Notes: a model not told the origin generated them from the sequence alone. 43,328 nucleotides of DNA from Candidatus Yonathbacteria bacterium (GCA_013334825.1 JAAXWR010000001.1:406731-450058), one strand, 5' to 3'; positions 9,655 to 23,660 are shown, counted from the first letter of the stretch. Numbers and translations: made by a program.

Positions 9655-9741
9655 GCCGAGGTGGCGAAATTGGTAGACGCAGTAGACTCAAAATCTGCCG
9701 GTGGCAACACCATGAGGGTTCAAGTCCCTCCCTCGGCACCA
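9655..9741 (+). tRNA. tRNA-Leu(CAA)
   Basis: GCCGAGG/CCTCGGC acceptor stem, anticodon loop CT-CAA-AA, long variable arm, GGTTCAAGTCC T arm, encoded CCA. Confidence 0.96.
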
Positions 9742-10146
9742 CAAAAAAGTCCCGATTCGTTCGGGACTTTTTTGTGGTGCCGAGGAGCGAGCCAACTGCT
9801 TGGCTCGCGTGAGGGACTTGAAGGCCACAGCCATATCGGAGCACTTGTGCTTCGATGGCGAGGCGGGGTCGCGAACACTTTGCATAATACGAGCTTTAGC
9901 GAAGTATTATGCTTAGTGATTCGTGACCAAGTCCAGATTGTGAGGGACTTGAACCGAGCACCACTTTTGTAATGACAAAAGTTGTGCTCGGCGTCCAGCG
10001 ATACTTAGTGAGCGACCAGCTCTGCTGGAAGCGAGCTTAGTAATCGCGGGACAAGTCCCGACCGAGGAGCGAGCCAACTGCTTGCCTTCCGCTCGCCTCA
10101 CCGAGACACTTTCACAGAAAAGTGAAGGTGGGTGAAGGGCTTGAAA
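9742..10146 (+). repeat. tRNA-associated structured repeat, about 2.5 units matched to tRNA-Leu(CAA)
   Basis: Antisense TGGTGCCGAGG, hairpin A AGCGAGCCAACTGCTTGGCTCGCG, antisense T arm GAGGGACTTGAA (9811, 9942), hairpins B and C, sense CAAGTCC. Confidence 0.85.
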
Positions 10147-10305
10147 TAATGAGAAATCAAAGTACTTTACCAACGTATACACTACTGTTCTATATCCACC
10201 TTATACATATACTTATCACAAAACAAATACGACCTTGAATCATATTGCCTTATCTGCTATATTCCTTTCAACTTGTCCTTTCTATAAAACATAACAATAT
10301 ATGCT

Positions 10306-10788
10306 ATGCAAAAAATAAAAGAAAATAGGGAGCCGTTTCAAGTCATGCCTCCTGTCTACGACATGCCAGCACTTGTCCATCTCTGGAGACGATCGTGCAG
10401 ACTTGGTGAAGTATGCAAGATTGCTCAAGATATTATTCGGAGACAAGAACGTCTATCTGAAAACAATTTTGAGGTAAACCCGAAAAATCTTGTTGAGAGA
10501 TTTTGTGCTCTTGCAAAAAGAAACACGGACGAAAAAAGACCTATCAAACTCTTTCGTTATTCTCCTGATGGAGAATCCATGAAGTCTTTTGAAGTTACAG
10601 GTGTAGAAGTATCTATTCCTCCAGGTCATATATTCTCCATAGAGACATTTGTCCCTGAAGAGTGGGCGCGAGACACGCTGAACGCATTATTTGAAAAAGG
10701 TGTGTTTGCGCTCAACCTGAATCTACCCGAACATGAGCGAGGGTATGCAATTGCCCTCACACCTCCACACAAAAAACCCGACGCCTGA
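10306..10788 (+). CDS. Hypothetical protein
   Basis: 160-aa ORF; TTGAAT-N17-TATATT upstream; hairpin CCCGACGC-CTGA-GCGTCGGG contains the stop codon. Confidence 0.65.
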   Translation: MQKIKENREPFQVMPPVYDMPALVHLWRRSCRLGEVCKIAQDIIRRQERLSENNFEVNPKNLVERFCALAKRNTDEKRPIKLFRYSPDGESMKSFEVTGVEVSIPPGHIFSIETFVPEEWARDTLNALFEKGVFALNLNLPEHERGYAIALTPPHKKPDA

Positions 10789-10803
10789 GCGTCGGGATTA
10801 TTT

Positions 10804-12660
10804 TTAATTGAGATTATTCATCACCTTCTCAATATCAACATTGGGCGAAGAAACAACATTACGCACACCCATCTGCAATTCATGAAGGTGCTTATACAAT
10901 CCCCCGTCTTTCTTGAGCAGTTCCTCATGTGTCCCCTGTTCGTGAATCGCACCGTCCTTGAGGACCAAAATCTTATCTGCTTTACGTACTGTACTCAAGC
11001 GATGCGCGATGATGAGCGTCGTACGACCCTCCATGAGACGATCGAGTGCATGTTGGATGTTCCGTTCCGACTCGGCATCAAGCGCGGATGTCGGTTCATC
11101 AAGAATGAGGATTCTTGGGTCGCGCAACACCGCGCGTGCGATAGCAATACGCTGTTTCTGTCCCGCAGACAACTTCATGCCGCGCTCACCCACGACTTGC
11201 TTGTACCCTTTCGGAAACTTCATGATAAAGTCATGAGCGTCAGCTGACTTCGCCGCCTGTTGCACTTGCGCCTTGGTTGCTCGTGGCGAGCCGTATTTGA
11301 TGTTCTCATACACAGTGCCGTTGAAAAGAACAAGTTCCTGTGGTACGACGGCGATACTCCGCCGAAGTGTACGCAAGTACCACTTCTTCACATCAACCCC
11401 GTCCACACAGACCCGCCCTTTCTTTGGGAAAAAGTATGCCGAAACAAGATCCATGAGTGTACTTTTCCCCGCACCTGAACCACCTACAAACGCAACGGTT
11501 TCTCCCGCTGAAACAGAAAAGCTGACATTCTTAATAATATCGCGCTTTTTCCCTCCTTTGTCATATGCAAATGTAACACCCGCAAACGAGACATCTCCAC
11601 GTACATCCTGCGGATTGTATCCATCCTCCGGCTCATACTGTTCCGACGGTAATACAAGTGTCTCCTCCGAATGTGCAAGTGCAATAAGTCCGTTCTGCAC
11701 CCTGCTCCACATATTACCCATGCGGACAAATGGTCCGAAAGCCATTGCCGTATAGCCGTTGAACATAACCAGTTCACCAAGCGTCATAGACCCGCTTCTC
11801 ACAAATGCAACGGAGAGAATAAAGATTGAACCCTGAACCGTAAGTAACAAAAAAGACCGAAAGGCTCCAACTGCTTCCCATCGCGCATGATTTTCGACAA
11901 GAATCTTCGAGGGACCTTTTTCAAATCCATTTTTAATCTTTTGCGTCTCCTCTCGTTCGCTACTCGCCTGCTTCACATTTCCGATATTTGTCATTGCATC
12001 GGATACGAATCCGAACACCTTGCGATACCCTTTATGCATCGTGGAAGAATGCTCCGCCATCACAGGAATCCTGAAATACAATATGACAAGGTATGATAAA
12101 ATACCTGCAACCACAATTGATGCAAAAAGTGGTTGTATAACAAACATCACCCACAAACCGATAACCACCGACAACAACTCTGGAAAAAGCCCGATGACGA
12201 GATTCTGTAATACGGTGAATATCGAATCGGCCGCCTTATTCAAACGCTCGCGCACTTCTCCCGACTTCTCTTGTTTATGAAACGACAGAGGAAGTGAAAA
12301 CAAATGTTCCATGCCACTCACAAGATACCCTGAGTACATTTTCTCACTCAAGATAATGCTCTTGATACCAGATGCCCATTCGGACACTATTGTCACAAAG
12401 CGCAACAATGCCCACACCGCAACAGCGACAACCCAAACGGGAGCCGTATACCCAAACAGAGAAATATCTGTCGGATTGATAAGCCCATCAAAAAAACGTC
12501 CGAGGATATACGGAGTCACGCCATTTGCAAACGCTTGAAATAGTGCGGTGACTGAAAGAAATACGACGAACGGACGATACGGTCTCATTTGTCGAAACGT
12601 AACCGCCAAACCTTTTCTGATGTCCGCCATCTTTTTTTTATTTTTTCCCACTTTTTTCAT
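10804..12660 (-). CDS. ABC transporter, fused permease/ATP-binding protein (MsbA/MdlB-like)
   Basis: N-terminal TM domain; GGSGAGKST Walker A, LSAGQKQR signature, ILILDEPTSALD, IAHRLST. Confidence 0.95.
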   Translation of the reverse strand: MKKVGKNKKKMADIRKGLAVTFRQMRPYRPFVVFLSVTALFQAFANGVTPYILGRFFDGLINPTDISLFGYTAPVWVVAVAVWALLRFVTIVSEWASGIKSIILSEKMYSGYLVSGMEHLFSLPLSFHKQEKSGEVRERLNKAADSIFTVLQNLVIGLFPELLSVVIGLWVMFVIQPLFASIVVAGILSYLVILYFRIPVMAEHSSTMHKGYRKVFGFVSDAMTNIGNVKQASSEREETQKIKNGFEKGPSKILVENHARWEAVGAFRSFLLLTVQGSIFILSVAFVRSGSMTLGELVMFNGYTAMAFGPFVRMGNMWSRVQNGLIALAHSEETLVLPSEQYEPEDGYNPQDVRGDVSFAGVTFAYDKGGKKRDIIKNVSFSVSAGETVAFVGGSGAGKSTLMDLVSAYFFPKKGRVCVDGVDVKKWYLRTLRRSIAVVPQELVLFNGTVYENIKYGSPRATKAQVQQAAKSADAHDFIMKFPKGYKQVVGERGMKLSAGQKQRIAIARAVLRDPRILILDEPTSALDAESERNIQHALDRLMEGRTTLIIAHRLSTVRKADKILVLKDGAIHEQGTHEELLKKDGGLYKHLHELQMGVRNVVSSPNVDIEKVMNNLN

Positions 12661-12904
12661 GATGTATGTTATTTGATTAGTTGTGAAAGAAAATCTGATG
12701 AGACAATACTACATGATATAACTATTGTCAAATATCCGTGCATGCTATTTCCTATCAAACATCTCTAGTATACCCCACCAAAAAAAATTCTAGAAATATT
12801 CTGAGGATATGTAACTCATATTATGCCCACACCCATTGACAAAACAGACATCATCATGTTACATTCGGGACAAATTTCGTACCTAAAAAATAAAAAATAT
12901 ATCC

Positions 12905-13450
12905 ATGCATAAATCAAATGGAACGTGCCGTATGGTGTTTGTCTTTCCCACGCTTGGTATTGCTATAAAAATACCTATTATACAAATACGACTTTTTTTC
13001 AAAAGACTCTACAAAATTTTAAAGTCAGATACCCCATCAAGACACATATATCAAGAAATAATACTAAAATGGTATAACAGGGCTAGTATCAAGAAACTTC
13101 TTTTTCAAGGTATATGCGAAAATCTGCATGAATACTTCTTTTATTTGTTTTTTAAAAAGAGATTTCCTATACAACCGACATACTTTTCATTTTTTGGCTT
13201 ATGCAATGTCGTAAAAGCAGGAAAGCCTATTTCTTTATCAGAGATTGAATTTACATCCTGGCGGAAAAAAATTTTCGATATTGTCGGAAGAGATATTGAA
13301 GAAGATAATCACAATTTTGAATGCCCTGAGAATTTTACACGGCATGGTAACGACTTGTTTTTTCTCGATTATGGCAGTGAAAAAACAAGGAACTTCCTCC
13401 TCTCTCATGGGAAAAAGTTTTTTGGATTTTTTAATGATGTCGGCGCGTGA
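12905..13450 (+). CDS. Hypothetical protein, possible minimal kinase-like fold
   Basis: GTCRMV, AIKIP, ENLHE, HNFECPENF and LDYG appear in kinase motif order; AT-rich. Confidence 0.55.
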   Translation: MHKSNGTCRMVFVFPTLGIAIKIPIIQIRLFFKRLYKILKSDTPSRHIYQEIILKWYNRASIKKLLFQGICENLHEYFFYLFFKKRFPIQPTYFSFFGLCNVVKAGKPISLSEIEFTSWRKKIFDIVGRDIEEDNHNFECPENFTRHGNDLFFLDYGSEKTRNFLLSHGKKFFGFFNDVGA

Positions 13451-13571
13451 GCGCCGATTTTTTTTATTTCACCTCAAAAACAAAAGGCGCGTGAGCGCCT
13501 TTTGTTTTTGGTTTGTTTCTCACAACCATGCACCACGTGGGGTGCATAGCAGACTAACAACTAACAACTCA

Positions 13572-14189
13572 TTATATCTTTCCCACCAAATCAAGCCCTG
13601 GGGTCAGGGTATCATCTCCCGGCTCCCAACTCGCGGGACACACTTGTCCATTGTGTTCAGCAACAAATTTCGCGGCACGAAGTTTGCGCAGGAGTTCCTT
13701 GGCACTTCGTCCGATAGAATTGTCATTGATTTCGGCAGATACAATCACCCCTTCTGGATTGATAATGAACGATCCACGAAGTGCAAGTCCTTCGTGAGAC
13801 AAATAGACACCGAGATACTTCGCGAGCTTCCCCGCAGGGTCAGCAACCATGGGGAAGGCAATCTTTTTAATCGTATCGGACGTGTCATGCCACGCTTTGT
13901 GCGCGTACACCGTATCAGTACTTACCGACAATACTTCCGCACCTTCTTTTTGAAACTCAGGATACAAATCAGCAAGTTCAGAAAGTTCGGTCGGACACAC
14001 AAAGGTAAAGTCCGCCGGATAAAAGACAATCGCAAGCCATTTTCCCGTAAGCGCTCCTAAATCGACGCGGATAATTTCACCCTTCTGATATGCTTCAAGT
14101 GTAAAAGGTGCCAATATATCACCGACAATCGGCCTGTCATCATCAAAATCATCGAACAATATATCGTCAAAAAATTCTTCGTTTTCCAT
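13572..14189 (-). CDS. ahpC: 2-Cys peroxiredoxin (alkyl hydroperoxide reductase C)
   Basis: FYPADFTFVCPTE peroxidatic motif and VCPASW resolving motif. Confidence 0.95.
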   Translation of the reverse strand: MENEEFFDDILFDDFDDDRPIVGDILAPFTLEAYQKGEIIRVDLGALTGKWLAIVFYPADFTFVCPTELSELADLYPEFQKEGAEVLSVSTDTVYAHKAWHDTSDTIKKIAFPMVADPAGKLAKYLGVYLSHEGLALRGSFIINPEGVIVSAEINDNSIGRSAKELLRKLRAAKFVAEHNGQVCPASWEPGDDTLTPGLDLVGKI

Positions 14190-14205
14190 ATGTGGTATAT
14201 ACTAT

Positions 14206-15156
14206 ATGAATAATACTGCTAGTATAGCACACGATATGCATTCCACCCATCGGCAAAAACTCATCATCGTCGTCGGACAAACCGCCTCGGGCAAAAGCGA
14301 CGTGGCAGTTACCATCGCACTTCACGCAAATGGAGAAGTCATTTCTGCCGATTCCCGTCAAGTATACAAGGACATCCCCATCGGTTCTGGCGTCATTTCT
14401 GATACGGACATGCGCGGTATCCCCCATCATCTCCTTGGTTTTGTCTCGCCACGTGTGGCATATACCGCGGGACAATATCGCGAAGATGGACGACGCGCGA
14501 TTGTTGATGTTGCCTCACGCGACAAAGTACCCGTGATTGTCGGGGGGACGGGATTTTATATTGATACACTGATACATGATGACCCTCTTCCCGAAGTACC
14601 GCCCAACAAGATACTCCGTGCGTCTTGTGCGAAATGCTCAACAGAAGAACTGATTGCTCGCCTCGCCTCACTTGATGCGAAACGCGCTTCTTCAATCGAC
14701 ACCAACAATCGTCGGCGTATCGTGCGAGCGATTGAAATTGCAACACTCCTTGGTCATGTCCCCACTATTCCTGTGCGTCGTAACTCTCCATACGATATAC
14801 TTTGGCTTGGCATCAGAGTTCCCGACAATGAACTTCACACACGCATCAATACACGCAATGCTTCAATGATAAGCCAAGGACTTGTTGCTGAAGTACGCAC
14901 TCTTCATGACAAACGGCTGTCATGGAAACGTATCGAGGAACTCGGTTTTGAATTTGCGTATGCTGCCATGCACATACGAGGTACACTAAGCGAAAACACC
15001 ATGCTCACGCGCATGGATATTGCCACACGTCAATATGCCAAGCGTCAAAAGACATGGTTCAAACGAAATGGCGATATCAAATGGTTTTCACCGAACGATA
15101 CCGCGCATATCTTGAAAACAGTAGATGCATTTCTCGCAGACCGACCTGCGGTATAA
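14206..15156 (+). CDS. miaA: tRNA dimethylallyltransferase
   Basis: GQTASGKS, ISADSRQVY, PHHLL, VGGTGFY, TRQYAKRQKTWF; true start may be 14236. Confidence 0.96.
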   Translation: MNNTASIAHDMHSTHRQKLIIVVGQTASGKSDVAVTIALHANGEVISADSRQVYKDIPIGSGVISDTDMRGIPHHLLGFVSPRVAYTAGQYREDGRRAIVDVASRDKVPVIVGGTGFYIDTLIHDDPLPEVPPNKILRASCAKCSTEELIARLASLDAKRASSIDTNNRRRIVRAIEIATLLGHVPTIPVRRNSPYDILWLGIRVPDNELHTRINTRNASMISQGLVAEVRTLHDKRLSWKRIEELGFEFAYAAMHIRGTLSENTMLTRMDIATRQYAKRQKTWFKRNGDIKWFSPNDTAHILKTVDAFLADRPAV

Positions 15157-15163
15157 GATACTA

Positions 15164-15279
15164 GTTCGTAGTTCGTAGTTCGTAGTTCTTGGAACAAATT
15201 TTTATCAAAGAAAAAACATGCAAAGCATGTTTTTTCTTTTTTGTATTCTCTACGAACTAAGAACTACAAACTACGAACT
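15164..15279. terminator. Probable bidirectional terminator framed by inverted AGTTCGT/ACGAACT heptamer tracts
   Basis: AAAAAACATGC-AAA-GCATGTTTTTT between convergent miaA and sod; (AGTTCGT)n on the left and ACGAACT-like units on the right. Confidence 0.6.
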
Positions 15280-15849
15280 TTTTACAAATCTTTCCTCCAC
15301 CACTCGCCAATCAATCGCATGCATGACCACATCCACATAATCAGCACGCTTGATACCATAGTCCGTCATATATGCGTGTTCAAACACATCAAGCACCAAA
15401 AGCGGTTCAGTTCCCACGAGATGCCCGCCATCATGTTCATTGATCCACAGTGTAAAAAGTCCTCCTGTTTCTCTATCTTTAGCAAAGACAACCCATCCGA
15501 TACCGCGCATCATCATCGCTTTTTCTATATCCATCTTCCATGCATCAAATGACCCGTATGCTTGTTCAATTGCTTTCATAAGCTCGGGAGCGGATGATGG
15601 CTCTACATCTTCTTTCGTCAAATTACCAAAGTAAAGTTCGTGAAGACGCATACCATCCCATTCCCATCCAAAACGTCTGCGCAATTCCGCGCTTTGGGGT
15701 GTCCCCGGTTCAATCGTCTTTGCGAGTTCCGCAATGGTATTCGTGTTTTTCACATATCCTTCATAGAGCGCGAAATGATTACGGAGCATATTCTCGGAAA
15801 GACCCGGAATACCGATGCACTGTTCAAAGTTTTGAGGGATATACGTCAT
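15271..15849 (-). CDS. Fe/Mn superoxide dismutase family protein
   Basis: NHFALYEGYVKN, RLHELYF, GIGW, LDVFEHAY; start reassigned to MTYIP. Confidence 0.92.
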   Translation of the reverse strand: MTYIPQNFEQCIGIPGLSENMLRNHFALYEGYVKNTNTIAELAKTIEPGTPQSAELRRRFGWEWDGMRLHELYFGNLTKEDVEPSSAPELMKAIEQAYGSFDAWKMDIEKAMMMRGIGWVVFAKDRETGGLFTLWINEHDGGHLVGTEPLLVLDVFEHAYMTDYGIKRADYVDVVMHAIDWRVVEERFVKSS

Positions 15850-15972
15850 GTGTATATAAAAAATGAAGTAAATAATACTCTGTGTAGTATAACAGAAAAA
15901 ATATACTATTCCCATTTTTCAAAATCACATAAGTTTCCCCTTTTCATGAAAAAGTGTATACTATGTTGCATT

Positions 15973-16467
15973 ATGGTTACTCTGTTTGATACGACAATAC
16001 TCACTTATATACTCTTTGGTACGGCCTTTGTCGCACTTGTCTCATGTATATGGGCGATTATCCTCCACCGAAAAATCAATCGTCTTCTTGGCGGCTCCAC
16101 GGCCAAAGACCTTACGCATGCAGTTACTACACTTCATGAAAAAGCTGCTGACCTTGCAAAGACGCAAGAAAAAATACATGCATATCTGTCACGTGCCGAA
16201 TCACGCATGTCGCGAAGTATCCAAGGTATTGCGACAGTTCGTTTTAATCCATTTAAAAATCAGGGTGGAGGAAGCAATCAAAGTTTCGCCACCGCCCTCC
16301 TTGATGAAGAAGGAAACGGAGTTGTTATCTCAAGCTTGTACTCTCGTGACCGCGTCGGTGTATATGCCAAGCCTATTGAGAAAGGTACATCTTCCTATGA
16401 ACTCACCGATGAAGAAAAGTCTTCAATAGAGCTCGCATATTCAAAATTCAGACAATCGAAAGAATAA
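15973..16467 (+). CDS. DUF4446-like membrane-anchored protein
   Basis: N-terminal TM, coiled coil, VRFNPF..GG.NQSF...LLDEEGNGVVISSLYSR....YAKPI. Confidence 0.8.
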   Translation: MVTLFDTTILTYILFGTAFVALVSCIWAIILHRKINRLLGGSTAKDLTHAVTTLHEKAADLAKTQEKIHAYLSRAESRMSRSIQGIATVRFNPFKNQGGGSNQSFATALLDEEGNGVVISSLYSRDRVGVYAKPIEKGTSSYELTDEEKSSIELAYSKFRQSKE

Positions 16468-16476
16468 GCTCGGAAA

Positions 16477-16513
16477 GATACGGGGGGCGGCGCGAAGCGC
16501 CGCCCCCCGTATC
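16477..16513. repeat. GC-rich palindrome with GCGAAGC core
   Basis: GATACGGGGGGCGGCGC-GAA-GCGCCGCCCCCCGTATC; the 21-nt core recurs at 35533-35553. Confidence 0.7.
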
Positions 16514-16573
16514 CCCGTATTTCCTCCCCCTCCATAGACAAACATGTCATATTGATGTAGGGTAACACAACAT

Positions 16574-18076
16574 ATGTCTCCAACACCTGACACGCCAAAG
16601 ACTCCTCGCTCCCCCATTATTGTTATCATGGGGCATATTGATCATGGAAAATCAACGCTTCTTGATTATATTCGAAAAAGCAATGTCGTCGCAACTGAAT
16701 CAGGTGGCATCACCCAGCATATTTCCGCCTACGAAGCCATGCACAAGGGCGAAGACGGAACAGACAAACGTATTGTATTCCTCGATACACCTGGACATGC
16801 AGCATTTTCATCCATGCGTGGTAATGGTGCAAAGGTCGCCGATATCGCTGTTCTCGTCGTCTCTGCAGAAGATGGTGTCAAGGAACAAACAATGGAAGCA
16901 CACAAAGCAATTATAGACGCGCATATTCCGTATATCGTCGCCATCAATAAAATAGACCGCCCTGGTGCCGACATTGACCGCACAAAACTTAGTTTAGCGG
17001 AACACAACATTTTTGTTGAAGGATATGGTGGCGATATTCCTTTTGTCCCCATCTCTGCAAAACAAGGGACAGGCGTTTCCGACCTTCTCGACATGATGCT
17101 CCTTGTCGCAGATATGGCAGAACTATCCTCTGATCCCTCTCGTCCTGCCGAAGGTGTTGTCATCGAATCAAATGTGGACCCACGTCGAGGCATTTCAGCA
17201 AGTGTCATGATTTTGGATGGTACACTTGAAAAGGGAATGTTTGTTGTTGCAGGATCATCATACTCCCCTGTTCGTGCCATTGAAAACTTTGCGGGTAAAA
17301 ATATTTCTCTTGCAGGCCCCGCGACTCCTGTTCGCATCACAGGATGGAGTACCGTGCCTCCTACAGGAGAAATCTGCTCAACATTCACTTCAATCAAAGA
17401 AGCACGTGCCGCGGCAGAACTTCATACAAACACAAAACACACCTGCACATTTACTCCATCAGAAGGAACAGAAATCGTTATTCCTCTCATTGTCAAAGCA
17501 GACACATTGGGGACTCTTGAAGCGGTCGAGAAAGAACTTGGAAAACTTGTACATGAGACAGTCTGTCTTCGTATTGTACATGCTGACGTTGGCGATATTG
17601 GTGAAAATGATATTACCATCGCCTCTGGTTCTCATGACGCACTTGTTATCGGTTTTCGTGTCAAAGCAGATAAACAAGCCCTTGCCCTAGCAGATCAAAA
17701 CACCGTCTCCGTAGAAACGTTTGCTGTTATTTATAATCTCATTGATCATATTGATGAAATCATGCGTGCCCGCACTCCCAAGAAAGAAATTGAAGAACAT
17801 CTTGGTTCTGTGAAAATCTTAAAAACTTTTAGCAAGATAAAAGATAAACAAGTTATCGGTGGCAAAGTCATTGATGGTATGATTATGAACAAACTGGATG
17901 TCATTATCGAACGACGAGGTACAGAAATTGGACGTGGAAAACTCACCGAACTTCAAGAATCACGCGTCAAAGTTGAAAAATCAGAGAAAGGTGCCGAGTG
18001 TGGCATGCTTGTTGAAGCAAAAACAGACATTGCTCCTGGTGACATTATTATCCCTTTTAAAAAGACAATCGTCTAA
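16574..18076 (+). CDS. infB: Translation initiation factor IF-2 (short form)
   Basis: MGHIDHGKST, GGITQHI, DTPGH, NKID, KADTLGTLEA. Confidence 0.97.
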   Translation: MSPTPDTPKTPRSPIIVIMGHIDHGKSTLLDYIRKSNVVATESGGITQHISAYEAMHKGEDGTDKRIVFLDTPGHAAFSSMRGNGAKVADIAVLVVSAEDGVKEQTMEAHKAIIDAHIPYIVAINKIDRPGADIDRTKLSLAEHNIFVEGYGGDIPFVPISAKQGTGVSDLLDMMLLVADMAELSSDPSRPAEGVVIESNVDPRRGISASVMILDGTLEKGMFVVAGSSYSPVRAIENFAGKNISLAGPATPVRITGWSTVPPTGEICSTFTSIKEARAAAELHTNTKHTCTFTPSEGTEIVIPLIVKADTLGTLEAVEKELGKLVHETVCLRIVHADVGDIGENDITIASGSHDALVIGFRVKADKQALALADQNTVSVETFAVIYNLIDHIDEIMRARTPKKEIEEHLGSVKILKTFSKIKDKQVIGGKVIDGMIMNKLDVIIERRGTEIGRGKLTELQESRVKVEKSEKGAECGMLVEAKTDIAPGDIIIPFKKTIV

Positions 18077-18083
18077 CACATAC

Positions 18084-18422
18084 ATGGAACACACAAAAGA
18101 AAAATTAACTGGCGTTATCATTGCTCTTGCCGCAGAATTTCTCAATCGTGAAGCAGACAAGTCTTCTCTGGTCACAGTCACAGGATGCAGTCTCTCTGAT
18201 AATCTCCGTACCGCTACGGTTCTTCTCTCTGTCCTTCCTGAAGGACGATCTGCTCCCGCACTTGAATTTGCACGCCGTAAACTGCCCGAGTTTCGCGCGT
18301 ATGTTGGTTCCCATGCCCGTCTCAAATATCTTCCGTTTTTCCATTTTGACCTTGATGCAGGAGAAAAAAATAGGCAAGCATTGGACGAGGTGTCTCGTGC
18401 ACAGGCATCATCACTCAAGTAA
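18084..18422 (+). CDS. rbfA: Ribosome-binding factor A
   Basis: Directly after infB; LVTVTG..LS.NLR.A.V and LKYLP..HF.LD pattern; start MEHTK. Confidence 0.85.
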   Translation: MEHTKEKLTGVIIALAAEFLNREADKSSLVTVTGCSLSDNLRTATVLLSVLPEGRSAPALEFARRKLPEFRAYVGSHARLKYLPFFHFDLDAGEKNRQALDEVSRAQASSLK

Positions 18423-18553
18423 CATAACGACATGAGATAGCGATTATTAATAATTGCTTGTGGTTTGATACTTGTTTATTTGATATTTTTTTATCTTTGA
18501 AAATATTTATTGGGACTAGAATAAATGTCCCATACCGTGTATCATATACGCAC

Positions 18554-18625
18554 GGCCACGTAGCCAAGTGGTAAGGCAAGGGTCTGCAAAACTCTTATAC
18601 GCGGGTTCGATTCCCGCCGTGGCCT
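18554..18625 (+). tRNA. tRNA-Cys(GCA)
   Basis: GGCCACG/CGTGGCC acceptor stem, CT-GCA-AA loop, GGTTCGATTCC; CCA not encoded. Confidence 0.95.
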
Positions 18626-18855
18626 CACGAAAAAGCCCCCTCAAGGGGCTTTTCTCGTGAGGCCACGGAGCGAGCCAACTGCTTGGCTCGCGCTTGCCTT
18701 GCCGAAACTTGTCTAAAGACAAGTGAAGGCGGGTCGAGAATCGAACCGAGCACCACTTTTATAATGATAAAAGTGGTGCTCGGCGTCCAGGAGTACTTGG
18801 CAGAATGCAAGTTTACGCAGCATTATGCCTAGTAACTCCGGGACGATTCCCGAGG
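18626..18855 (+). repeat. tRNA-associated structured repeat matched to tRNA-Cys
   Basis: Hairpin, antisense TGAGGCCACGG, hairpin A, GAGAATCGAACC, hairpin B GAGCACCACTTTT..AAAAGTGGTGCTC, hairpin C, sense CGATTCCCG. Confidence 0.85.
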
Positions 18856-18907
18856 TACTATGCACTTCTTCCGAGAATCGATTCTTATAATAATATTTAA
18901 GATAAGA

Positions 18908-20635
18908 CTATACTAAACCGAGAATATTTTTGAGTGTAATGACATGATTCCTACTAATCTCATAATCATTCTCTGATACATTTCTCCAAAATAGTGCCTT
19001 AACATCATTCTCATTCTTTATAAGATTAATTGCGTCTTCTCTATTAATGATAGGTATCCTTCGTGCTTTACTGACCACACTGGAGAGATCGGCGGGAGGA
19101 TTAGAGAGAACGGAGAAATCTTCATTCCATATTTTAGAAACACATTCAGACAAATGATTTTCATACTCCTCAAAAAGATTCTCGATTGACATTTCTTCAG
19201 GGAGTAAAATAACATGAACATCTTTGATATCTGAGAATAACATGTCTTTAAATCCATCAACTTCTTGAGAAATACTCATCTTTTGAAGATGCCGTGATAT
19301 CGCCTTCTCCATTTTTCCTTTATCAGAATCTATAATAAAGTATACAGGGGCACGAATAATATCAGGAGTTGTTGTTATTACATCAAGATATTTTCCTATC
19401 TCAGTGATACCACTTAAACCACTGACAATTGGAATCCCGACTTTTTTATATGAATCAACCGTCTCTTTCTTCTCATCCTCACAAAAAATTAATTTTTCAC
19501 TGCTTGAAGAGAAGAAATATGCAAAAAAATTTGAATCTCCCATTATCTTACCCAGATCCTTTATTCTCTCATCATCAATATTTTGTGGACTAATGGTTTC
19601 TATATCCCCAACCCCTTTCAAGATGTTCCATTTTACTCTATCCCCACTTATTCGACTACCAGCAAGGAGTACGGGCGAATGAGTAGTTACAACCATCTGG
19701 ATATTATTCAACCAAGTTTCCGAATTTAATAAGTTTGATATTTTGAACAATAAATCGGCATGCAAAAATGATTCTGGTTCTTCCATTAACCAAATCGGAT
19801 GATATTCTCCTTTATTCAAGGACCTATCACTATCTAATAAATACTGCGCCAAATAAAGTACCGTTGCTTGAGCACCTGTACCTTGTGCTGTGAGTTGTAT
19901 CTCAGGAAGATCTGTATCTCCTTGAAAATTTACATCTGATACAGCAATAACGTCTGATATGTTTTTTGGCAAAGAGACAGATACTCGACAACCTGGCCAA
20001 AAAGACTGTAGGGATTCCGATAACGAATTAGAAAGATAATCATTCGCATAATTCTTCATTCCTCCCCAACTATCTTCTAGCGCTTGAATCTGATGGGTAA
20101 GACGAGCATTCCTACCCCAGTTCTGGAGAAGACGATCTCTTAAACGTCTTTGGACGTTATCGAAAAGAATTTGACCATCTTGCGGATGGATGTACGTTAC
20201 TTTAGTTGACGCAAGTAAACTTTTTATATCGGAAGATAGTTCTTCTCGCAAAAATCCAGTCTCTCCAATAAACCATTTTATTGATACAATTTTTGATGTT
20301 GGTGTAAAAGTAACTATCTTCTTTATTAGAAGGATATCACCATACTCCCTTATCATTCGGGTTTTCCTACTTTTTGTACTTAATTCTCGTAAGTTAAATG
20401 AGACCGATATCTCACTTTGGTTATATTTCTCCTGTTTTCTCGAATATTCTGTTCTATTTAAAAAAGTCTCATCAGAAAAATACTGATCATCAAAAAAAGC
20501 TCTGATGGCATATAAAACATTTGTCTTCCCTGAATTATTTATACCAACCAGATAAGATGCTTGGGAAAAATCTAAAAGGATCTCTTCTCGAAATCCTCTA
20601 AAATTTTTTATTTTTATTTGTGTAATAAATGACAT
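18908..20635 (-). CDS. OLD-family / ABC-ATPase + TOPRIM ATP-dependent nuclease (putative defence protein)
   Basis: IKNFRG, GINNSGKT Walker A, QGTG, LMEEPESFLH, TTHSP, then FCED...DSD TOPRIM-like acidic motifs; visibly AT-rich. Confidence 0.8.
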   Translation of the reverse strand: MSFITQIKIKNFRGFREEILLDFSQASYLVGINNSGKTNVLYAIRAFFDDQYFSDETFLNRTEYSRKQEKYNQSEISVSFNLRELSTKSRKTRMIREYGDILLIKKIVTFTPTSKIVSIKWFIGETGFLREELSSDIKSLLASTKVTYIHPQDGQILFDNVQRRLRDRLLQNWGRNARLTHQIQALEDSWGGMKNYANDYLSNSLSESLQSFWPGCRVSVSLPKNISDVIAVSDVNFQGDTDLPEIQLTAQGTGAQATVLYLAQYLLDSDRSLNKGEYHPIWLMEEPESFLHADLLFKISNLLNSETWLNNIQMVVTTHSPVLLAGSRISGDRVKWNILKGVGDIETISPQNIDDERIKDLGKIMGDSNFFAYFFSSSSEKLIFCEDEKKETVDSYKKVGIPIVSGLSGITEIGKYLDVITTTPDIIRAPVYFIIDSDKGKMEKAISRHLQKMSISQEVDGFKDMLFSDIKDVHVILLPEEMSIENLFEEYENHLSECVSKIWNEDFSVLSNPPADLSSVVSKARRIPIINREDAINLIKNENDVKALFWRNVSENDYEISRNHVITLKNILGLV

Positions 20636-20894
20636 AAATTTAATATCTATAATACTGTTGATAGACCAAGCATAACGACACTGAAAAATAAATACAACTA
20701 TACACTGTTCTCAGTTTGTATTATGGTATAACACAAAATATATAAAATCCAAGGCATCAGTTTACTAAAAACAGCATCAAAGATACTACGTCTACAGAAT
20801 TCTCAAGAAAATAAGTGATTAGGCTCAAAGCCTTTGTCCGAGACATTGGAAATTTGCACCATACCCTCATGTTTTTTCATAAACAAAATGCTGC

Positions 20895-21106
20895 TGGACC
20901 TGCCGACAGGCAGGCGCGGCTCCCCAGCCCTACGTTCATGTAGTACGCATACATACGCACGAATTTTAATTCATGTAATACAGTTGTTACACATACTATC
21001 GTACATCATGAACGTAGGGCTGGGTCCGCCGTTCGAACCCCGGCGCAATGCAAGCAGTTGCATTGCTCTCTGGGCACACAAAAAAGCGCAAAAGCGCTTT
21101 TTTGTG
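20895..21106 (-). repeat. Divergent tRNA-associated structured repeat matched to tRNA-Leu(TAA)
   Basis: Minus strand: antisense TGTGCCCAGAG, hairpin A variant AGCAATGCAACTGCTTGCATTGCG, CGGGGTTCGAAC, long stem CCCAGCCCTACGTTCATG/CATGAACGTAGGGCTGGG. Confidence 0.8.
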
Positions 21107-21190
21107 TGCCCAGAGCGGGATTCGAACCCGCGCGATCTTGCGATCAAGGGATTTTAAGTCCCTCGTGTCTACCAACTCCACCACCTGGGC
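21107..21190 (-). tRNA. tRNA-Leu(TAA)
   Basis: Reverse complement GCCCAGG...CT-TAA-AA...GGTTCGAATCCCGC-TCTGGGC-A with long variable arm. Confidence 0.95.
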
Positions 21191-21252
21191 AATGTGAAGA
21201 TTATACTGTATTTCCCTGAAATTGTCTGCCCCACATCGCTAAAGCGAAGTGA

Positions 21253-21650
21253 TGCGGACGGAGAGACTTGTTCCGCGGTTACTAATCATAATGCTCCAAG
21301 CACTCGCATTTTTATAAGTACCGCTATGACGTCGAGCACCACTTTTGCCATTGCAAAAGTGGTGCTCGGTTCAAGTCTCTCGGGCCCAGCTCTACTTTCA
21401 TATATTCACAGGGTGTAAAAAAAATATAAAAAACACAAAAAACGTATATAATAAATATACGTTTTTTGAAAGTAGAGCTGGGTGCGGACGGAGAGACTTG
21501 TCCCGGAGTTACTAAGTAACATGCTCCAAGTATTCGCATGTTACTAAGTACTCCTGGACGCGGCGTGCCATCGTCGCCTAAAGGCTCCGATATGGCTCCG
21601 CCGTTCAAGTCTCTCGGCCGGGACACATTGTCCCGTCCAGGGAAACCAGA
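21253..21650 (-). repeat. Two tandem tRNA-associated units matched to tRNA-Leu(TAG)
   Basis: Each unit: GAGAGACTTGAAC, hairpin B, hairpin C, sense CAAGTCTCTCCGTCCGCA (plus-strand copies near 21253 and 21483); units linked by a 16-bp inverted repeat at 21385-21400 / 21467-21482. Confidence 0.85.
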
Positions 21651-21695
21651 GATTACCTCACTATAGAAAATCAACAAATGGAGATGTTGTGCAAG

Positions 21696-21777
21696 TGCGG
21701 ACGGAGAGACTTGAACTCTCATGGGTTGCCCCACTGGTTCCTAAGACCAGCGCGTATACCAATTCCGCCACGTCCGC
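21696..21777 (-). tRNA. tRNA-Leu(TAG)
   Basis: Reverse complement GCGGACG...CT-TAG-GA...GAGAGTTCAAGTCTCTC-CGTCCGC-A. Confidence 0.95.
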
Positions 21778-21790
21778 AATATAGATATTA

Positions 21791-22116
21791 AGCACAACTT
21801 TTGCCATTGCAAAAGTTGTGCTCGGTTCGATTCCTGGCTTGCCACGCCAAAGCTTTAGCGAAGGCAGGCTTGCCACGCCGAAGCCTTGGCGAAGGCGGGG
21901 CGCGAGCCAAGCAATTGGCTCGCTGTGTCTGGACACCACTGTGTCCATCCTACCTGAGAATCGTCCCGCGGTTACTAATAAAAATGCTCCGAGCACTCGC
22001 ATTTTTATAAGTACCGCTGGACGTCGAGCACCACTTTTGTATAGACAAAAGTGGTGCTCGGTTCGATTCCTGGCGCGAGCCAAGCAGTTGGCTCGCTGTG
22101 TCTGGACACCACTGTG
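21791..22116 (-). repeat. About 1.6 tRNA-associated units matched to tRNA-Lys(CTT)
   Basis: Hairpin A then CCAGGAATCGAACC (twice), hairpin B (twice), hairpin C, degenerate sense 3' end CGATTCTCAGGTAGGATGGACAC. Confidence 0.85.
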
Positions 22117-22189
22117 TCCATCCACCAGGAATCGAACCTGGAACCTGCCGGTTAAGAGCCGGATGCTCTACCAATTGAGCTATGGATGG
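22117..22189 (-). tRNA. tRNA-Lys(CTT)
   Basis: Reverse complement CCATCCA-TAGCTCAATTGGTAGAGC...CT-CTT-AA...CCAGGTTCGATTCCTGG-TGGATGG-A. Confidence 0.93.
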
Positions 22190-22308: not shown

Positions 22309-22554
22309 CTAAAGTCCCAATGTCGCTTGAATAAATTTTATAATACCACCCACGGTAACCATAATAAACATTCCTGCGAGACCCCATAGCATATGATTCC
22401 TTCCATTTTCCCTAGCATTCTCATCACCCGATTGAAAGATATATGCGGCTACACCCCAAAGAAAGAGTGCAAAACCAAGCGCAAACACAACACCGATAAT
22501 CGGATTTACAATATGTTCGACGATATTATCTATAACGGTGTCAACTGCTGCCAT
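22309..22554 (-). CDS. Pilin-like small membrane protein (TrbC/VirB2-like, CPR type)
   Basis: FLWGV..YI...G....R..GR..M.WGL.G.FIM two-TM pattern. Confidence 0.75.
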   Translation of the reverse strand: MAAVDTVIDNIVEHIVNPIIGVVFALGFALFLWGVAAYIFQSGDENARENGRNHMLWGLAGMFIMVTVGGIIKFIQATLGL

Positions 22555-23186: not shown

Positions 23187-23660
23187 TTATCTTGAATTTC
23201 CTACTTCGGCATTTGTAAAATCAGACCAATTAAAAGAAGTATCTTCATTTTTTATATCTGTGGAGCTTGTTCCTAATATATCAGGTGTCTGAGGGACTTC
23301 AGTACTGGTCGTTTCAAAAATAGTTTGTTGTGCAACTTCTATCAACCCCCACAACGCAACAATAACAAAAAGAGAGACAATACCATAAACCATAATCTTA
23401 CTTCCCTCACTATACGAAGCGCTATCTCCCGCTGAAAAGAGCATTTTTGCAAGACCAAACAAAAATGCCACAAGTGCAAGTGTTACAATTACAGGAACCG
23501 CAACATCAATAATCTCGACTAGCATCGTTGCAAGTTCAGAAAAAGTCCCAGGAGCAGCGAACACAAATAAAGGAAATGCGCCGACAACATATGTTACCAA
23601 AAAAATAACGTGTTTCTGAAAAAATATCTTTGTCATAGGTATGATGTTAAAGTCCTGCAC
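23187..23660 (-). CDS. Pilin-like membrane protein
   Basis: Signal peptide ending VFA-A, AGD.....GSKIMVYGIVSLFVIVALWGL; start may be 23636. Confidence 0.75.
   Translation of the reverse strand: MQDFNIIPMTKIFFQKHVIFLVTYVVGAFPLFVFAAPGTFSELATMLVEIIDVAVPVIVTLALVAFLFGLAKMLFSAGDSASYSEGSKIMVYGIVSLFVIVALWGLIEVAQQTIFETTSTEVPQTPDILGTSSTDIKNEDTSFNWSDFTNAEVGNSR

Follow-up and report, generated by a model that had tools for sequence, protein, structure and literature searches.

Structured repeat units built around copies of tRNA 3' ends were analysed in a 43,328-nucleotide (nt) stretch of a Candidatus Yonathbacteria genome (GCA_013334825.1, JAAXWR010000001.1:406731-450058); such a unit stands downstream of every tRNA gene of this stretch. 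The whole stretch is called the window, and positions are counted from its first letter. The genome (G000) comprises 838,881 bp in three contigs (C1-C3) at 43% G+C, with 48 tRNA genes and one transfer-messenger RNA (tmRNA) gene; exactly five of the tRNA genes were found in the window by ARAGORN and Rfam. The layout of the units was read from the sequence and from the output of a repeat finder, and module coordinates were taken by hand from tool outputs, with a possible error of a base or two. The copied segment, R, begins in the middle of the T loop and comprises the last ~20 nt of a tRNA; an antisense copy is termed mirrored and a sense copy forward. Comparisons were made with a genome of the same genus (G002) and with a metagenome contig from a close relative (L053).

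Downstream of all five tRNA genes of the window the modules were found in the order apex hairpin, mirrored acceptor strand, hairpin A, mirrored T arm, hairpin B, hairpin C and forward copy of R. Units measured 150-400 nt and contained no credible open reading frame (ORF) and no integrase. Hairpin A interrupted the mirrored copy precisely at the step from nt 66 to nt 65, the point at which, in an actual tRNA, the body of the molecule departs from the stack of acceptor and T arm. Apex and mirrored acceptor formed palindromes with the tRNA end, with arms of 25 nt at tRNA-Leu(CAA) (100% matched), 22 nt at tRNA-Leu(TAA) (100%) and 30 nt at tRNA-Cys (83%). At these three loci the apex was a two-way terminator, and at tRNA-Leu(TAG) and tRNA-Lys(CTT) it lacked a terminator with a run of T. 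Units were stacked at three loci: three, partly decayed, at Leu-CAA, and two each at Leu-TAG and Lys-CTT. A layout of this kind behind all five genes had been proposed in a first-pass annotation, a model's reading of the sequence alone, and it was recovered by both sequence reading and repeat finder with the local deviations given below (mismatched T arms at Cys and Leu-TAA, a cut-off unit at Leu-TAA, the missing T-run terminators and a different extent of the Leu-TAG array).

On the plus strand, tRNA-Leu(CAA) (9655-9741) contributes as copied segment its last 20 nt (9722-9741, T-loop nt 57 to CCA). It is followed by the apex hairpin, a two-way intrinsic terminator (9742-9774) at the centre of the 25-nt perfect palindrome (arms 9731-9755 and 9761-9785), the mirrored acceptor 3' strand with CCA (9775-9785) and hairpin A (9787-9808, between the two mirrored positions named above). 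A first mirrored T arm (9809-9822) and a hairpin B of the long type (9823-9864) lead to a hairpin C of a variant subtype (9866-9929, 70.2 bits) and a 6-nt stub of a forward copy (9929-9934). The second unit consists of another mirrored T arm (9940-9955; both T-arm copies were located by the repeat finder), hairpin B1 (9954-9991), a type also present in rRNA insertions, hairpin C (9992-10053, 58 bits) and a 7-nt forward stub (10053-10059). The third, decayed unit (10062-10145) retains a mirrored acceptor with a degenerate hairpin A (10062-10087), an extra hairpin and a degenerate mirrored T arm (10132-10145).

Behind tRNA-Cys(GCA) (18554-18626, plus strand; ARAGORN and Rfam) the apex terminator hairpin (18630-18655) lies inside the palindrome arms (18612-18641 and 18644-18673), and the mirrored acceptor (18656-18668) includes the trailer and thus runs beyond the mature tRNA end. 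Hairpin A (18670-18691) is separated from the mirrored T arm (18728-18747) by an extra hairpin module, E (18692-18727). This T arm has one mismatch to its own tRNA and fits the tRNA-Cys variant of L053. Hairpin B1 (18746-18783), hairpin C (18784-18845, 78 bits) and a forward copy from T-loop nt 57 (18845-18855), matching over 8 nt and decayed beyond, complete the unit.

The remaining three loci lie on the minus strand, and their units are accordingly read toward lower coordinates. At tRNA-Leu(TAA) (21106-21190; ARAGORN and Rfam) the apex terminator (21078-21105) and mirrored acceptor (21068-21077) form the 22-nt perfect palindrome with the tRNA end (21068-21105 together), followed by hairpin A (21045-21066) and a mirrored T arm with one mismatch (21031-21044), which can be read as forward or mirrored because the T arm itself is nearly palindromic. 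The distal part (20884-21030) consists of a hairpin B stem with a nested 100-nt hairpin D (20923-21024), a small hairpin and the stump of a hairpin C (20884-20899); the unit ends inside this hairpin, and there is no forward copy.

Behind tRNA-Leu(TAG) (21695-21777; ARAGORN and Rfam) the array extends to 21694, not to 21650 as first annotated. Unit 1 (21482-21694) contains a spacer, a hairpin (21617-21638), the mirrored T arm (21603-21615), hairpin B (21560-21602), hairpin C (21499-21560) and a forward copy (21482-21499). Directly after this forward copy stands a hairpin D (21385-21482) with an internal terminator (21436-21468), and then unit 2 (21253-21384), made up of a mirrored T arm (21369-21381), hairpin B1 (21333-21368), hairpin C (21269-21330) and a forward copy (21253-21270). 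Unit 1 of tRNA-Lys(CTT) (gene 22116-22189; ARAGORN and Rfam) spans 21962-22116 and has a small apex hairpin (22104-22119), hairpin A (22075-22096), a mirrored T arm (22060-22073), hairpin B1 (22025-22060) and hairpin C (21962-22023). The older unit 2 (21791-21962) has a decayed forward copy (21943-21962), a small hairpin, hairpin A (21902-21923), two tandem E modules (21836-21897), a mirrored T arm (21824-21837) and a variant of hairpin B1 (21791-21822).

Local specificity, folding and distribution

The match between each unit and its neighbouring gene was measured at all 49 tRNA and tmRNA genes of the genome by comparing own with non-own pairs of gene and locus, with the 400 nt upstream of each gene as a comparison. 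Of the 49 genes, 18 were followed by a mirrored acceptor match of at least 9 nt to themselves (0.5% of non-own pairs) and 19 by a forward copy of at least 11 nt (0.47% of non-own pairs); upstream, no gene of the 49 had an own copy of at least 11 nt. Mirrored T-arm segments were found downstream at 22 of 49 genes against 2.8% of non-own pairs, and are less diagnostic because T arms resemble one another. Under these strict exact-match thresholds at least one class of copy was detected behind 31 of the 49 genes, at least two behind 19 and all three behind nine. The acceptor segments match the adjacent tRNA far better than non-adjacent ones, in agreement with the first-pass annotation.

The position of the junction was scored at loci with a correctly placed T arm, and rows with a misplaced T arm were set aside. 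At every correctly parsed locus of G000 and G002 the forward copy started at T-loop nt 57, with the match reaching 0-1 nt further to the left, and was directly preceded by the constant end of hairpin C. In both genomes the mirrored copy continued to nt 53-54, where hairpin B starts. The duplicated target amounted to 18-30 nt of the local tRNA end, and the inverted arms varied by locus. The mirrored copy followed the genomic trailer and even the terminator, and contained no CCA where the gene does not encode one; for these reasons it is a copy of DNA and not of a mature tRNA. At tRNA-Thr(TGT) a mirrored acceptor alone was found, after the terminator.

Hairpin A gave 24 matches in the genome, about 18 of them within 110 nt behind a tRNA gene and on the same strand as the tRNA; one copy, in the array of tRNA-Lys(TTT), lay on the opposite strand. 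It has a conserved loop and a covarying stem of 8 bp. Across 24 distinct copies of the 62-nt hairpin C, 96.9% of paired positions were paired, compensatory changes had altered both sides in 14 of 19 pairs (equalled in 0 of 500 shuffles), and a conserved mismatch and a bulged base were retained. Hairpins A and C are under selection for pairing. Their unpaired letters were also conserved across families of the order, and hairpins A, B and C always came in one order and orientation. When folded as single strands, the Cys and Lys units reached z-scores of -15.6 and -14.1, and none of 200 shuffles folded as well; in the predicted fold R pairs with its mirror to give a long hairpin that is capped by the apex and has hairpin A branching off its side, and hairpins B and C come after it. 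The tRNA-sense strand was more stable than its complement in 26 of 26 units, and in 23 of 26 when RNA parameters were used.

A covariance model of hairpin C (R1) was run on 151 genomes of the same order and on 150 others from the phylum, sampled at one genome per species, with kin not being independent. Hairpin C was present in 64 of the 151 genomes, at 1-22 copies each, with the highest number in the present genome, and in none of the 150 sampled elsewhere in the phylum. Copies do not lie mainly away from tRNA genes: among the best hits, one per genome, 23 of 28 were preceded, at a distance of 78-517 nt, by a same-strand tRNA or tmRNA gene, and two of the other five had almost no upstream sequence. 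At tRNA-Cys loci in other families of the order the same architecture was built from other hairpin sequences, and one such locus (L004) carried two complete tandem units, each with its own terminator. In G002 the tRNA-Cys gene was followed by a mirrored end with hairpin A up to nt 49 and by neither hairpins B and C nor a forward copy, and its tRNA-Leu(CAA) gene had no unit. No described family was found to which the units belong. In Rfam only the five tRNAs of the whole window passed the gathering threshold, and a permissive search of two element regions returned sub-gathering, hairpin-like chance matches; a distant-mode search of a phage collection, in which plasmids and viral contigs were not covered, gave no match to the Cys unit; and in the literature searched nothing was found on such elements, nor a miniature inverted-repeat transposable element (MITE) that would correspond to them.

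Turnover and exchange of modules

L053 is 90-96% identical to the window over 11 kb and differs from it in whole modules. Leu-TAG unit 1 is missing from L053 over 194 nt (21501-21694); a 19-nt direct repeat, extending from T-loop nt 56 to the 3' end, bounds it in the window. Leu-TAG unit 2 is also missing, over 147 nt. For Lys unit 1 the two sequences differ in hairpin B, with flanks that otherwise share ~98% identity, and the older Lys unit of L053 lacks the two tandem copies of the small module E. At Leu-TAA, L053 has an intact hairpin C and forward copy, and the terminator is replaced by a 100-nt hairpin D exactly between R and its mirror. Its tRNA-Cys gene is followed by an extra gene-proximal unit, with its own terminator and a variant R, and the unit of the window type stands behind it. 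One contig from an independent lake run (X5) had the same two empty forms as L053. Other joints in the contigs of four DNA runs were different loci sharing modules.

Hairpins were shared between loci more closely than within them. Over G000 and G002 the nearest relative of a hairpin C lay at a different tRNA gene for 30 of 31 copies; nearest pairs were often 1-2 bases apart, against 4-25 bases between copies at the same tRNA in the two genomes. Hairpins B and C together were ~98% identical between tRNA-Gly(GCC) of G000 and tRNA-Pro(GGG) of G002, and the identity stopped at the T-loop letters on both sides; other pairs of loci shared hairpin C alone. Nesting was also seen, of hairpin B1 in another hairpin B and of hairpin D in hairpins B and C. 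Where tRNA-Leu(TAG) differs by a T-loop base between G000 and G002, the mirrored and the forward copies differ likewise. It follows that the scaffold is mosaic in nature: its hairpin modules move from locus to locus or are converted, and R with its mirror stays local.

The gene for tRNA-Arg(CCT) (C1:179343-179415) has an A.C mismatch in the T stem. The forward copy behind its unit differs from its own tail and is near-identical to that of the tRNA-Arg(TCT) locus, a foreign tRNA end within the array. The mismatch was rejected as proof of an imported 3' end, the downstream copy being near-identical to hairpin C and the 3' end of the Arg(TCT) locus.

Interpretation and competing explanations

With a probability of about one half, the units are small, modular DNA elements of one order of Patescibacteria, without proteins of their own, that sit in the T loop of tRNA and tmRNA genes and bring a replacement 3' end. 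Each would begin at T-loop nt 57 of the functional gene and finish where hairpin C ends. It would comprise the replacement tRNA 3' end, an apex (a terminator, a hairpin D or cargo genes), the mirrored 3' end with hairpin A interposed, and hairpins B and C. Insertion would displace the old 3' end downstream, where it would be seen as the forward copy, and new units would enter beside the gene, so that older units would accumulate distally and decay. By analogy with integrase islands, which do the same, the combination of a fixed 56/57 junction, a restoring direct repeat, a gene-proximal newest unit and distal decay is the signature of T-loop insertion with a replacement 3' end. Among the three readings offered by the first-pass annotation, a non-autonomous element that targets tRNA genes with matched segments fits best, in view of the discrete insertions and deletions, the tandem stacking, the fixed junction and the cargo genes held by relatives with the same end modules; its idea of one common scaffold gives way to the mosaic described above.

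How such an element would move can be outlined more tentatively. In this proposal, which is rather doubtful as a specific mechanism, the attachment site would be a folded strand that mimics the double-stranded T-arm and acceptor end of one tRNA gene. The element would move or recombine as a folded single strand, namely the tRNA-sense strand: a single-stranded circle with a hairpin of site and complement would be cut in one of its arms and joined into a duplex target at this same site, and the predicted product (site, loop, mirrored site, body, site) has the order found. The hairpin at the left end would begin with the tRNA 3' end because the gene must be restored; its other arm would then have to be the complement, and for that reason the unit would carry antisense to its own tRNA. 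The loop of this hairpin could hold a terminator, another hairpin or whole genes. Shared hairpins would be reshuffled by recombination at the flanking T-loop-derived letters, and the tRNA-derived arms would stay local.

Cutting and joining would presumably be done by a host enzyme acting in trans, with a Xer-type tyrosine recombinase or a protein resembling RAYT, the transposase associated with repetitive extragenic palindromes (REP), as candidates. The genome has a single Xer-type tyrosine recombinase (PF00589), on another contig than the window (C2:115632-116624), which scored 128.7 bits against an integron-integrase cut-off of 265. The RAYT-like Y1 HUH gene (C3:56931-57668) scored 43 bits in NCBIfam, below the cut-off of 80, and is preceded by several copies of its own 20-nt palindrome, unlike the hairpins of the tRNA units (C3:56700-57668, locus L110). 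RAYT-like homologues were found in 87 of the 151 genomes of the order, at up to 13 copies.

A number of results weigh against the proposed element or its mechanism. In this genome no recombinase or transposase gene was linked to any unit, and no related autonomous transposon with the same ends was found. The RAYT-like gene occurred in 46 of 64 genomes with hairpin C and in 41 of 87 without (odds ratio 2.9, uncontrolled for relatedness), a modest association that makes the HUH protein a candidate only; genomes without the gene also have units. Hairpin C was not associated with the large serine recombinase (39 of 64 genomes against 58 of 87). No excised or circular form or junction was seen in the contigs of four DNA runs, the only material in which it was sought. 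Leu-TAG unit 1 is present in the more distant G002, and since this makes a loss simpler than a gain, the difference from L053 is probably a loss there by recombination between the 19-nt repeats and not a gain in the window. The mirrored arm of the window Cys unit does not follow the T-stem change of its own tRNA, so that tracking by the arms is not absolute. The strand bias in 26 of 26 units is mostly due to hairpin C and may be one inherited trait, and mismatches between tRNA ends and mirrored copies were not enriched for sense-strand G.T (31 against 47, from a noisy alignment). Simple integration alone cannot re-match the arms to a new tRNA, and the sharing of modules between loci could be plain gene conversion.

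The large serine recombinase was rejected as mobiliser, being neither beside the units nor associated with hairpin C. Its intact gene (C1:105528-106865, loci L089/L090) lies ~700 nt behind tRNA-Gln(CTG), which has no unit, and serine-recombinase genes at other tRNA ends in the order likewise stand at loci without unit modules. A protein 96% identical is encoded in G024, which belongs to another family, and the homology is confined to the gene; this suggests that the gene alone was recently transferred horizontally.

The absence of a linked enzyme would be expected if there were no dedicated element at all. In principle, the triplet of forward, mirrored and forward segments could arise by template switching during replication at the terminator and T-arm palindromes, with independent palindromic repeats (B1, C, D, E) settling later in tolerated hairpin tips and being homogenised by gene conversion. 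Local matching of the arms would then be automatic, with no retargeting step, and partial forms do exist (tRNA-Thr(TGT) and tRNA-Cys of G002). Modules with separate histories are also found at hairpin tips, with B1 within hairpin B, D within B and C, and B1 in rRNA genes. Such fold-back at the T stem, however, predicts a mirrored copy to nt 49 and a forward restart at nt 66, whereas dozens of loci, with different tRNAs and from distant genomes, all have their junction at nt 56/57. Further points against it are that hairpins A, B and C never vary in order or orientation, that the unpaired letters of hairpins A and C are conserved across families, and that whole units are repeated in tandem, each with its own terminator (L004); this origin is considered unlikely.

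Covariation together with conserved loops is typical of functional RNAs, and the better folding of the sense strand under RNA parameters (23 of 26 units) is in keeping with a role in RNA. The units would then be structured 3' trailers or separate transcripts whose antisense arms pair with the 3' half of the pre-tRNA or with the forward copy, as a switch of folding or processing, or they would form a tRNA-like minihelix handled by RNase P/Z or RNase III. The Leu-TAG and Lys-CTT units are probably co-transcribed with their tRNAs, no T-run terminator standing before them; the mirrored acceptor and forward copy could form an acceptor-like stem; and the hairpin B1 copies in rRNA genes must be transcribed. 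At Leu-CAA, Cys and Leu-TAA, however, strong two-way terminators separate tRNA and mirrored segment, and because of this the switch on pre-tRNA folding suggested at first pass is unsupported at three of the five loci. The units are moreover dispensable, being absent at 18 of 49 genes (by the exact-match thresholds) and at Leu-TAG in L053; their copy number, truncation and tandem decay resemble mobile DNA; cargo genes can sit within the structure; the antisense reaches into non-tRNA trailer and terminator; and Rfam holds no match. A role in RNA is on the whole quite improbable, though less so for the units with no terminator before them. Two narrower ideas of an RNA kind were rejected. A retroelement-like primer-binding site conflicts with a mirrored copy that follows the genomic trailer and terminator and has no CCA where none is encoded, and an H/ACA-like guide with mirrored halves that leave no target nucleotide unpaired, in a bacterium with tmRNA.

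A very improbable function, also raised at first pass, is that of a decoy or shield, in which integrases of phages or islands would be diverted from the functional tRNA gene to spare T-arm and acceptor sites, or hindered from integrating by long palindromes. Variable cargo does lie distal to the units and not inside working genes, and serine-recombinase genes do occur at other tRNA ends in the order. A decoy would give no reason for the conserved hairpins A and C, the fixed order or the mirrored arm, and the units themselves behave as insertions.

Related systems, cargo and neighbouring features

Islands and prophages integrate in tRNA and tmRNA genes by means of a tyrosine integrase, the T loop being one of the sublocations used. 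The units described here resemble them in their insertion in the 3' part of a tRNA or tmRNA gene that is kept intact by the supplied 3' end, in the old end that becomes a downstream direct repeat, in tandem stacking and in varied cargo; they differ in being 150-400 nt long without an integrase or other gene, in the mirrored 3' end and conserved hairpins, and in the sharing of modules among ~30 different tRNAs of one genome. Folded single-stranded attachment sites are known from integrons (attC) and from the CTX phage, whose hairpin is used by XerCD. Likenesses to these would be a site made by intrastrand pairing (here predicted), structure kept over sequence, conserved mismatches and bulges, the predicted order of sites and gene arrays separated by sites; in contrast to them, no integron integrase is present, the target is the tRNA T loop and not attI or dif, and the single-stranded form is a prediction. 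The integron-like features would be the conserved mismatch and bulge of hairpin C and the genes of the tRNA-Ser(GGA) islet, which appear as separated by mirrored tRNA ends.

With REP/REPIN-RAYT systems and the IS200/IS605 hairpin elements the units have in common short hairpin repeats, conserved imperfections, many copies, the lack of genes, and the presence of a RAYT-like HUH gene enriched in genomes with hairpin C. They are set apart by the other palindromes of that gene, by their confinement to tRNA ends, by 20-nt arms derived from the target and by their occurrence in genomes without a RAYT-like gene. Unlike a MITE, they have no terminal inverted repeats common to all copies, the inverted arms being the local tRNA end. 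Hairpin B1 also brackets insertions in 23S and 16S rRNA genes here, as in rRNA-gene intervening sequences, although only this one module is shared and the tRNA-derived arms are left unexplained. Tycheposons and other island arrays anchored at tRNA genes reportedly have recombinases of their own and no mirrored tRNA ends split by hairpins. In the tycheposon report (bioRxiv 10.1101/2020.12.28.424599), tRNA genes are hotspots at which exchangeable genes form arrays and tRNAs are partly copied, in which respects they resemble the units.

Patescibacteria have tiny genomes with few recognisable mobile elements, and gene exchange among them is poorly understood. In this 839-kb genome one family of structured modules tied to tRNA genes accounts for a large share of the non-coding DNA. 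Should the single-strand reading be true, the units would join attC and the CTX phage as the third natural example of recombination sites formed by folded DNA, and would follow a simple rule for programming target choice, namely to carry the end of the target and its complement; most tRNA genes of the order would then be integron-like platforms for gene capture, made of shuffled hairpin modules. Should it fail, there would still be an order-wide, strongly covarying structure absent from Rfam, of use as a marker for genome plasticity and for annotation, since the unit regions now yield spurious ORFs.

The unit sites separate genes that differ between near-identical strains, among them a defence-like ATPase gene of the window. 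This cargo-like gene (18908-20635, minus strand) encodes an OLD/AbiEii-like AAA_15/AAA_21 protein of 575 amino acids and lies between the converging Cys and Leu-TAA arrays; at its position L053 has unrelated small ORFs. The gap between the two arrays appears as a strain-variable slot for defence-like cargo. Genes were also found within unit structures elsewhere in the genome. At tRNA-Ser(CGA) two ORFs stand between the gene and the mirrored acceptor, followed by hairpin A, mirrored T arm, hairpin C and forward copy, and because of these ORFs the apex of the long hairpin is taken to be able to hold genes. The islet at tRNA-Ser(GGA) consists of four genes separated by uninterrupted mirrored copies of R.

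Hairpin B1 forms the terminal inverted repeats of the insertions in the 23S and 16S rRNA genes (C3:65170-65485, 65797-65900 and 75689-75790, locus L013), one of which encloses a small GIY-YIG ORF; the 23S gene also has two group I introns. Hairpin D, a family of ~100 nt (window 21385-21482; C1:92271-92370; L053:11735-11834), starts directly at the discriminator or CCA of tRNA genes or of forward copies. It can take the place of a terminator or lie within hairpins B and C, and it looks like a second family of hairpins that prefers a site of its own. Just past the tRNA-Lys(CTT) gene, two small ORFs on the minus strand (22309-22554 and 23187-23660) match the type IV secretion pilin family PF18895.

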